Below are positions 21,383-22,158 of a DNA stretch of 27,892 nt, piece by piece. The DNA comes from an uncultured Nitrospirales bacterium. GTDB taxonomy: Bacteria; Hydrogenedentota; Hydrogenedentia; Hydrogenedentales; JAGMZX01. The position numbers were made by a program, and so were the translations under genes. How positions within the stretch are numbered: the stretch's first letter is position 1; every line of letters begins with the position of its first letter. The stretch is taken from positions 1 through 27,892 of the forward strand of contig CAYMLC010000004.1 of NCBI GenBank assembly GCA_964390765.1, in the 5' to 3' direction. The notes under the pieces are model-generated. The model was not told the DNA's origin. It ran no database searches and saw nothing but the letters and a program-made list of their open reading frames with translations.

Positions 21383-21775
21383 ATGCTGTACGTGAACCCG
21401 CTGGCCGGGGCGCCGGCGCAGAACATCGAGCAATTTGCCGACAACCCCGCGCGCGAGAAGCAGGCGTTGCAGGAGTTCGAGCGCTTTTTTCTGTACCAGC
21501 TCGTGAAGGAGATGCGGCGCACGGTGCCGGAGAGCGAGTTGTGGGGCAACGGCCCCGCGCAGCAGACCTATCGTGAATGGATGGACGACGCCCTGGCCGG
21601 GGCCCTCGCACAGAGCGGCCAGTTCGGCGTGGCGGAACAAATCAGCAAGCAATGGGAAGCGCAGGCCGCGGCCATCAAGTCGCGGCTGGCGCCTGCCGAT
21701 AATCTGGGCGTGCCGGAGGCAACGGTGGCCACCGCCGTGCAGACGCCCACGGGAGTGAACCGATGGACCTTCTGA
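21383..21775 (+). CDS. flgJ: FlgJ rod-binding domain protein (short, no muramidase domain)
   Basis: 'ALQEFERFFLYQLVKEMRRTV...YREWMDDALAGALAQSGQFGVAEQI' is the rod-binding pattern; adjacent to flgI. Confidence 0.85.
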   Translation: MLYVNPLAGAPAQNIEQFADNPAREKQALQEFERFFLYQLVKEMRRTVPESELWGNGPAQQTYREWMDDALAGALAQSGQFGVAEQISKQWEAQAAAIKSRLAPADNLGVPEATVATAVQTPTGVNRWTF

Positions 21776-22158
21776 GCGGTATCGGCGCGGCGACGATGTT
21801 TCTGCGCAGTGCGGGCGACTTCGTTGATGCGCTGAAGAGCGAGGGCGCCAACGCCCAGGCCCAACGCCAAGAGGACTTTCGCGCGGTGCTGAGTTCAATG
21901 CTGGAAACCGGAAGCGAGAAGATGGGCGAGATGCGCGATGCGCGGCAGACTGCCCGGCTCGACGCCTTCGCTGAACGCGCGATGCAGCTCTACGACGCCA
22001 ACGCCGATGGGCGTCTGTCGCGCGCAGAGATGGCGCTGGGTCCCCGGCTCTTCGAGCATTTCGACACCGACGCCGACGGCTGGGTGACGCCGGAAGAACT
22101 GCGGGCGGCACTCTCCCCCGCTTCGAACGGCGGCAACAACACGACAGGAACCGCTTAG
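21763..22158 (+). CDS. EF-hand calcium-binding domain protein inside the flagellar operon
   Basis: Two canonical 12-residue loops, DANADGRLSRAE (21994-22029) and DTDADGWVTPEE (22063-22098); GGGAG RBS; overlaps flgJ by 13 nt. Confidence 0.85.
   Translation: MDLLSGIGAATMFLRSAGDFVDALKSEGANAQAQRQEDFRAVLSSMLETGSEKMGEMRDARQTARLDAFAERAMQLYDANADGRLSRAEMALGPRLFEHFDTDADGWVTPEELRAALSPASNGGNNTTGTA

Follow-up and report, generated by a model that had tools for sequence, protein, structure and literature searches.

The window, by which we mean the whole 27,892-nt stretch of DNA analyzed here, belongs to a Hydrogenedentota MAG that is 80% complete and divided over 658 contigs. The only sequencing run that matches it contains DNA from a microbial mat metagenome, probably the source sample; no RNA run matched. 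The window contains a flagellar gene cluster that extends from flgF to flgL on one strand, with ORFs that overlap or abut and a single sigma-54 consensus in front. Between flgJ and flgN lies a gene for a small protein with two predicted calcium-binding EF-hand loops (Table 1). In the ORF list, the ATG at 21763 is the most upstream start in that frame, and a Shine-Dalgarno-like GGGAG is found 7 to 8 nt 5' of it. The gene start (21763) and the stop of flgJ (21775) create an overlap of 13 nt, while only 3 nt separate the gene end (22158) from the start of flgN (22162). The tight coupling described in the original prediction is thus borne out by the ORF coordinates.

Table 1 Features of the flgF-flgL cluster in the window and of the EF-hand protein encoded within it
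Feature	Position (nt)	Strand	Basis or description
Sigma-54 type consensus, TGGCAC-N5-TTGC	16737-16752	+	Exact pattern match; 97 nt upstream of flgF
flgF	16849-17685	+	ORF; Flg_bb_rod match 16948-17040
flgG	17704-18495	+	ORF; Flg_bb_rod match 17722-17808
flgA	18502-19635	+	ORF; Pfam ChapFlgA
flgH	19639-20274	+	ORF; Pfam FlgH
flgI	20282-21382	+	ORF; Pfam FlgI
flgJ, 130 aa, rod-binding domain only	21383-21775	+	PF10135, E = 1.9e-12
EF-hand protein gene	21763-22158	+	ATG start, 131 aa
Residues 1-10, M-D-L-L-S-G-I-G-A-A, candidate hydrophobic N-terminal export signal	21763-21792	+	Family-wide N-terminus
Residues 39-43, F-R-A-V-L, candidate gate-recognition motif (GRM)	21877-21891	+	F-x-x-x-hydrophobic
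EF-hand loop 1, residues 78-89, D-A-N-A-D-G-R-L-S-R-A-E	21994-22029	+	Canonical 12-residue loop
EF-hand loop 2, residues 101-112, D-T-D-A-D-G-W-V-T-P-E-E	22063-22098	+	Canonical; 23 residues after loop 1
flgN, export chaperone family	22162-22677	+	PF05130, E = 9.9e-12
flgL, last flagellar gene of the cluster	22684-23607	+	TIGR02550, 232 bits, above cut-off

The TGGCAC-N5-TTGC element in front of flgF is the sole exact match to this pattern in the window, and consensus scans of positions 16000 to 24500 revealed no internal promoter or terminator that was convincing beyond chance. It is therefore likely, judging from the pattern itself, that this element is the promoter of one operon comprising flgF, flgG, flgA, flgH, flgI, flgJ, the EF-hand gene, flgN, and flgL. 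The sigma-54 control proposed earlier agrees with the position of the gene downstream of this perfect consensus. The FlgJ of the window is matched by TIGR02541 with the N-terminal part of that model only. Two neighboring genes have features of their own. FlgA is 377 aa long, and its ChapFlgA/SAF domains cover residues 254 to 373 only, while the first ~250 residues have a signal-peptide-like start and no Pfam match. The gene 3' of flgL (23671-24855) carries two CxxCH heme-binding motifs and by eye resembles a di-heme cytochrome c peroxidase.

In the EF-hand protein, a variable linker connects an N-terminal module of ~50 residues to a compact EF-hand pair. Pfam EF-hand_6 matches it with E = 2.5e-10, and EF-hand_1, EF-hand_5, and EF-hand_7 also score above their cut-offs, each over two stretches (models PF13405, PF00036, PF13202, and PF13499). 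The two canonical loops anticipated from the sequence are recovered by these matches at residues 78-89 and 101-112. A canonical loop has 12 residues with ligands at positions 1, 3, 5, and 12, a glycine at position 6, and a hydrophobic residue at position 8, all of which are present in both loops of the window protein. In the family alignment, Asp78 and Glu89 of loop 1 and Asp101, Gly106, and Glu112 of loop 2 are invariant. Of the 58 family representatives, 51 have two 12-residue loops at a distance of exactly 23 residues, and this spacing holds in 51 of the 52 that have at least two loops; three of the representatives lacking the pattern are truncated fragments. The ~58 representatives share only ~30% identity, yet they keep both loops and the N-terminal motif described below, and because of this the loops and the motif represent more than chance. 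The alignment thus indicates that the EF-hand pair is under strong constraint in both canonical loops. A duplicated EF-hand pair, with four loops in 159-182 aa behind the same N-terminal module, is found in L107:582-1064 (genome G030, the same as L027), P0059, and P0061.

In the AlphaFold (AF2) model, the EF-hand pair is predicted with a pLDDT of 75-83, and residues 58-117 form a helix-loop-helix unit twice, with short bridging strands. The N-terminal 57 residues are drawn as two helices at low confidence (pLDDT ~50). A Foldseek comparison with the PDB gave single calmodulin-type lobes as the best matches (TM ~0.6, rmsd 2-3.5 Å over ~64 columns, E ~0.06-0.2), with nothing at E <= 0.001 and no match of any kind for the N-terminal part. 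The inter-loop spacing of calmodulin is roughly 36 residues, longer than the 23 of the EF-hand family.

Searches outside the family returned EF-hand proteins of a different location. An ESM Atlas feature search produced generic bacterial EF-hand clusters only, with scores of at most 0.91. Word-based protein searches, whether with the full-length protein or with residues 60-125 alone, returned only one close relative and three Sec-secreted EF-hand proteins. The nearest EF-hand relatives outside the family (P0003-P0005) are 47-49% identical over the loops and carry Sec signal peptides, which is why we consider this compact loop type to be typically extracytoplasmic. Like the family, P0003-P0005 have a short inter-loop spacing, and they share the canonical DxDxDG loops with it, as do other periplasmic EF-hand proteins such as Caulobacter CaBP (PMC13171946) and EfhP. 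However, P0003-P0005, CaBP, and EfhP have Sec signals or membrane anchors and do not lie in flagellar clusters.

Two named families with compact EF-hand repeats were considered as assignments for the window protein and rejected. Lanmodulin (NF053806) scored 14.6 bits against a cut-off of 135, and the protein has two loops, not four. XopAW (NF041410) scored 30.2 bits against a cut-off of 120, with a match limited to the EF-hand loops. Both resemble the family in the ~23-25-residue spacing of their repeats, and XopAW, a type III-secreted effector, also combines EF-hands with type III secretion. However, they possess three or four loops, whereas the EF-hand family has two. A proline at loop position 2 is a hallmark of lanmodulin and is absent from the family.

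The N-terminal module provides the second characteristic of the family. The consensus begins with M-[D/S/N]-[L/I]-L-x-G-[I/V]-G-A, followed by L-V-R-E-L-K-x-P-R. The small non-polar start is common to the family, and in the window protein Ala, Val, Ile, Leu, or Gly occupies seven of the nine positions from 2 to 10. Farther along, a motif F-x-x-x-[L/I/M/F] is present in every full-length representative, with its Phe at residue 32-51 and mostly at residue 34, and this Phe is invariant among 41 aligned members. In the window protein, the motif is formed by Phe39 and Leu43, the shift from 34 to 39 being due to a short insertion. The family as a whole came to light only in an exhaustive search of 1.84 billion proteins, in which a profile of the first 50 residues matched 61 proteins at E <= 0.001. 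Nearly all of them are 100-180 aa long and aligned from residue 1, and the exceptions in size or start appear to be upstream-extended gene calls. Three weak matches in much longer proteins, two of them over several stretches and one without a stretch, look spurious. According to these profile matches, the N-terminal module occurs in no other architecture. Judged by these searches, the EF-hand proteins appear to form a previously undescribed family of small proteins restricted to Hydrogenedentota.

Early flagellar substrates, which travel without a chaperone, carry a bipartite export signal, which was defined by experiment in Salmonella (PMC8983047). Its first part consists of small non-polar residues near the N terminus, and its second part is a gate-recognition motif (36-FLTLL-40 in FlgD and residues 39-43 in FlgE), for which the C-domain of FlhB is the docking site; the N-terminal region of early substrates is often unstructured (PMC8983047). 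The EF-hand family shares the small non-polar extreme N terminus with FlgD, FlgE, FlgG, and FlgJ, and the early substrates and the EF-hand protein are likewise encoded in the same middle-class operon. In the genome of the window, F-x-x-x-hydrophobic occurs right after the rod N-terminal domain in FlgB, FlgC, FlgD, FlgE, FlgF, and FlgG, with Phe41 as the motif Phe in both FlgE and FlgG, and the FlgJ of the window has it at residues 32-36. Among the late substrates of the same genome, FlgM has no Phe in its 99 residues, FlgL has none in its first 50, and FlgK has no F-x-x-x-hydrophobic at residues 30-45. By inspection, the N terminus of the EF-hand protein is not a Sec-type signal, as the original prediction had stated, since residue 2 is acidic, a basic n-region is lacking, and the hydrophobic stretch of ~10 residues is rich in Gly and Ser. 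The resemblance to exported flagellar proteins that had been seen in this N terminus also fits and would be, more specifically, a resemblance to the two-part signal of early substrates. We infer that, in its N-terminal module, the protein may carry the two-part signal by which early (rod/hook-class) substrates enter flagellar type III export. The EF-hand protein differs from known early substrates in that it has no rod, hook, or cap domain, its cargo is a predicted Ca-binding EF-hand pair, and its export is presumed.

How far the motif itself can carry this assignment was evaluated with the crude proteome of the window's genome, in which we counted proteins with at least five small non-polar residues among the nine positions from 2 to 10 together with F-x-x-x-hydrophobic whose Phe lies at 30-45. 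Both features occur by chance in 3.5% of this proteome. Because the motif is short and has this background, the argument for export rests on its family-wide invariance, its fixed position, and its context. Aligned by hhalign with 21 Hydrogenedentota FlgD N termini, the module places its conserved Phe on the GRM of FlgD, with p = 0.14 and a probability of 0.4%; this is not significant, and homology of the module to a known substrate was thus not detectable. A complex prediction that paired the C-domain (residues 215-369) of FlhB from a relative, G008, with the first 60 residues of its cognate ortholog gave a score of 0.31 relative to a mark of 0.32, with controls at 0.00, and is weighed neither for nor against docking. 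In the window's own genome, FlhB was found only as fragments at contig ends, one of which belongs to a short FlhB-C-like paralog.

The FlhB genes of the relatives show some variation of their own. The autocleavage motif is N-P-T-R or N-P-T-E, not the usual N-P-T-H, in L112 (G014) and L115 (G012), while the FlhB proteins of G008 and G006 keep N-P-T-H. A second, short frame that resembles the C terminus of FlhB (PF01312 positions 262-335; 88 to 345 aa) was present in all genomes checked, including G000:C624:1257-1725, G014:C1:571648-572330, and G019:C1:803511-804043. The short frame adjoins a second FliK-like (PF02120) gene of ~400 aa, and the two form a pair apart from the main flhB and fliK.

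The N-terminal module, for instance in its L-V-R-E-L-K-x-P-R segment, is more conserved than generic type III signals usually are, and from the alignment such conservation could equally be that of a module engaged in a specific protein-protein interaction in the cytoplasm. The protein could then be a cytoplasmic Ca2+ sensor or regulator, whose N-terminal helices would attach to another flagellar protein (candidates are FlgN, FlgJ, the FlhA/FlhB export gate, and a sigma-54 activator) and whose Ca2+ occupancy would tune export or expression. A module conserved beyond the need of a generic secretion signal would be accounted for in this way, and the two low-confidence helices of the model may be what is expected of a segment that folds on a partner. 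The tight coupling to flgJ and flgN is also in keeping with a sensor, and two-loop bacterial EF-hand Ca2+ sensors are known, such as EfhP of Pseudomonas aeruginosa. However, the closest EF-hand relatives are Sec-secreted, and the motif always runs from residue 1 with a near-fixed distance to the Phe, neither of which is needed by a mere binding helix. We regard a cytoplasmic sensor or regulator as somewhat unlikely but as a serious rival.

To survey the position of the gene, genomes of the same order of Hydrogenedentota were compared, and public loci were gathered with FlgI as the anchor. The order flgI-flgJ-X-flgN-flgL was present in all 11 of the same-order loci fetched, X being an ortholog of 110-126 aa that is ~30% identical to the window protein. 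According to match positions relative to FlgI, the slot between flgJ and flgN is filled in 29 of 33 FlgI-bearing relatives of the order; the passenger insertion that had been named as a possible refutation is not what this synteny indicates. In three of the remaining four (G007, G018, and G024), flgJ abuts flgN, and the fourth is too fragmented to tell. A full-length ortholog was found in none of the seven relatives without FlgI. The FlgI-anchored public Hydrogenedentota loci comprised 14 with the EF-hand gene and 14 without it, and in the latter flgJ abuts flgN or is separated from it by a short non-coding gap. When five genomes without the gene in the slot were searched with the N-terminal-module profile, no relocated copy was found, the only match being marginal (E = 0.006). 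On the FlgI tree, which does not resolve its basal branches, 13 of 15 bearers fall in one group with support of 94/89, and a single gain of the EF-hand gene followed by a few losses is possible.

Some individual loci deviate in other respects. L023:5757-6447 has 690 nt without a convincing ORF between flgJ and flgN, a region of only 150-200 nt in its close relatives L022 and L032. L017, L018, L020, and L037 come from MAGs whose deposited names are Nitrospirales, Nitrospiraceae, or Bathyarchaeia, yet their flagellar clusters are of the Hydrogenedentota type and they lie inside Hydrogenedentota on the FlgI tree; these contigs are probably mis-binned or mislabeled.

The gene is accessory because some flagellated relatives lack it, with flgJ directly abutting flgN. 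No copy turned up in G007, G018, or G024, nor in two other Hydrogenedentota genomes with a flagellar cluster, so no essential step can depend on the EF-hand protein. The EF-hand gene thus belongs to the flagellar cluster as a stable accessory that can be dispensed with and, among the genomes searched, occurs only in flagellated ones. Its dispensability, as well as the lack of homology to any flagellar family, would suit a hitch-hiker whose function, for example as a general Ca2+ buffer, is unrelated to the flagellum and which became fixed in the operon by chance. However, the position is kept in no fewer than 11 GTDB families of the order at only ~30% identity, and the start and stop of the gene overlap or abut its neighbors. 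In addition, the gene was never found outside the cluster or in FlgI-less genomes among those searched, and in one lineage the EF-hand pair was duplicated at the same site. A chance hitch-hiker is accordingly improbable in our estimation.

The original prediction had placed the protein in the flgM slot, where it would act in place of the anti-sigma factor. The protein is small, lacks a Sec signal, and lies between flgJ and flgN, in all of which it resembles the FlgM of some phyla. Neither the window protein nor any of 12 orthologs has a FlgM (PF04316) match at E <= 1, in agreement with the earlier observation that a FlgM-like motif is absent, and the HMM check assigned the protein neither to FlgM nor to another flagellar family. 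FlgM also differs from it in being a late substrate and in lacking the Phe motif, and the two show no sequence match to each other. The slot was examined in eight loci of other phyla by means of the flgJ-flgK interval, which contains flgM and flgN in three (L058, L072, and L081) and flgN alone in five (L042, L044, L059, L075, and L078). All Hydrogenedentota loci have flgJ-(X)-flgN-flgL and neither flgM nor flgK there. The notion of a flgM slot therefore holds for the three outgroup loci and fails for the other five and for the sister Hydrogenedentota, in which the slot is empty, and the position between flgJ and flgN is only sometimes that of FlgM.

A separate FlgM is encoded elsewhere in the genome of the window, on contig C82, with 25.9 bits at a Pfam cut-off of 25. 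There (L001, G000), FlgM (1453-1878, minus strand) and FlgK (from 1976, plus strand) form a divergent pair, and it is because flgM and flgK, whose place in other phyla is between flgJ and flgL, sit together on another contig that flgN abuts flgL in the window. FliA (250 bits) is found on contig C455 and RpoN on contig C69. The search of the genome for flgM and fliA that had been suggested thus located both, and the idea that this lineage has no FlgM is corrected by the gene on C82. Since FlgM and FliA, and with them the sigma-28/FlgM checkpoint, are present, the EF-hand protein is not a stand-in for FlgM. As a specific alternative, a Ca2+-responsive anti-sigma-28 factor in the flgM position would draw on the small size, the missing Sec signal, and the location shared with flgM in L058, L072, and L081. 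Against it stand the absence of a FlgM match in all 13 members, the genuine FlgM next to flgK together with FliA, and a slot that holds only flgN in 5/8 outgroup loci and is empty in sister lineages that nevertheless keep the cluster, which makes such a replacement extremely improbable. A hook-length ruler was also considered and rejected, as a separate FliK gene adjoins flgD and flgE on contig C6.

Taken with its context, the protein combines a known Ca-binding domain, as predicted, with an N-terminal module peculiar to its family, and its gene lies within a flagellar operon. We tentatively favor, with somewhat less than even confidence, an unchaperoned early flagellar export substrate that would bind Ca2+ after export. 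The EF-hand protein would be made together with FlgF, FlgG, and FlgJ from the sigma-54-driven flgF-flgL operon, with which its gene is passed on, and the Phe motif ~34-39 residues in would dock on the cytoplasmic domain of FlhB. It would then pass the flagellar export gate unfolded and without a chaperone, and the EF-hand pair would bind Ca2+ and fold only outside the low-Ca2+ cytoplasm. The flagellar-type N terminus would thus replace the Sec signal of the related extracytoplasmic EF-hand proteins. Once outside, the protein may serve as an accessory factor when the rod, ring, or hook is assembled; since the gene is missing from several flagellated relatives, it would modulate the assembly of the flagellum and not be needed to build it.

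Precedents for parts of this proposal come from injectisomes. Folding induced by Ca2+ has been documented for a disordered protein secreted through a type III system (PMC6506597), and Ca2+-dependent behavior is known for an early injectisome substrate, the EPEC ruler EscP (PMC5210495). The MIIA domain of NopE/VIC_001052 (PMC6506597) and EscP (PMC5210495) represent the same concept as the EF-hand family, namely type III substrates with a Ca2+-dependent fold or interactions. However, they are injectisome proteins of unrelated sequence and have no classical EF-hand. A more speculative version of the early-substrate proposal, which we consider decidedly improbable, is a secreted Ca2+ checkpoint, in which the early type III substrate would report or exploit the Ca2+ level outside the cytoplasm. 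For instance, its folding on the nascent rod or hook only in the presence of Ca2+ would gate rod/ring completion or the substrate-specificity switch. If true, this would be for the flagellum what the Ca2+-dependent EscP-SepL switch is for the injectisome.

In a full-text literature search for EF-hands in connection with bacterial flagella or type III export, the matches were limited to EF-hand proteins of eukaryotic flagella, EfhP, injectisome cases, and reviews, and no EF-hand protein is known from them that belongs to the bacterial flagellum or is exported by it. Papers on Hydrogenedentes and flagella, as judged from title and abstract, do not treat the EF-hand gene. If the N-terminal module is a working signal, the EF-hand family would represent a natural graft of a flagellar export signal onto a non-structural, Ca2+-dependent cargo. 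It would also provide independent confirmation of the bipartite signal of Salmonella from a deep-branching uncultured phylum. Moreover, such a working signal would link environmental Ca2+, in this case that of a microbial mat as the probable source, to the assembly of the flagellum.
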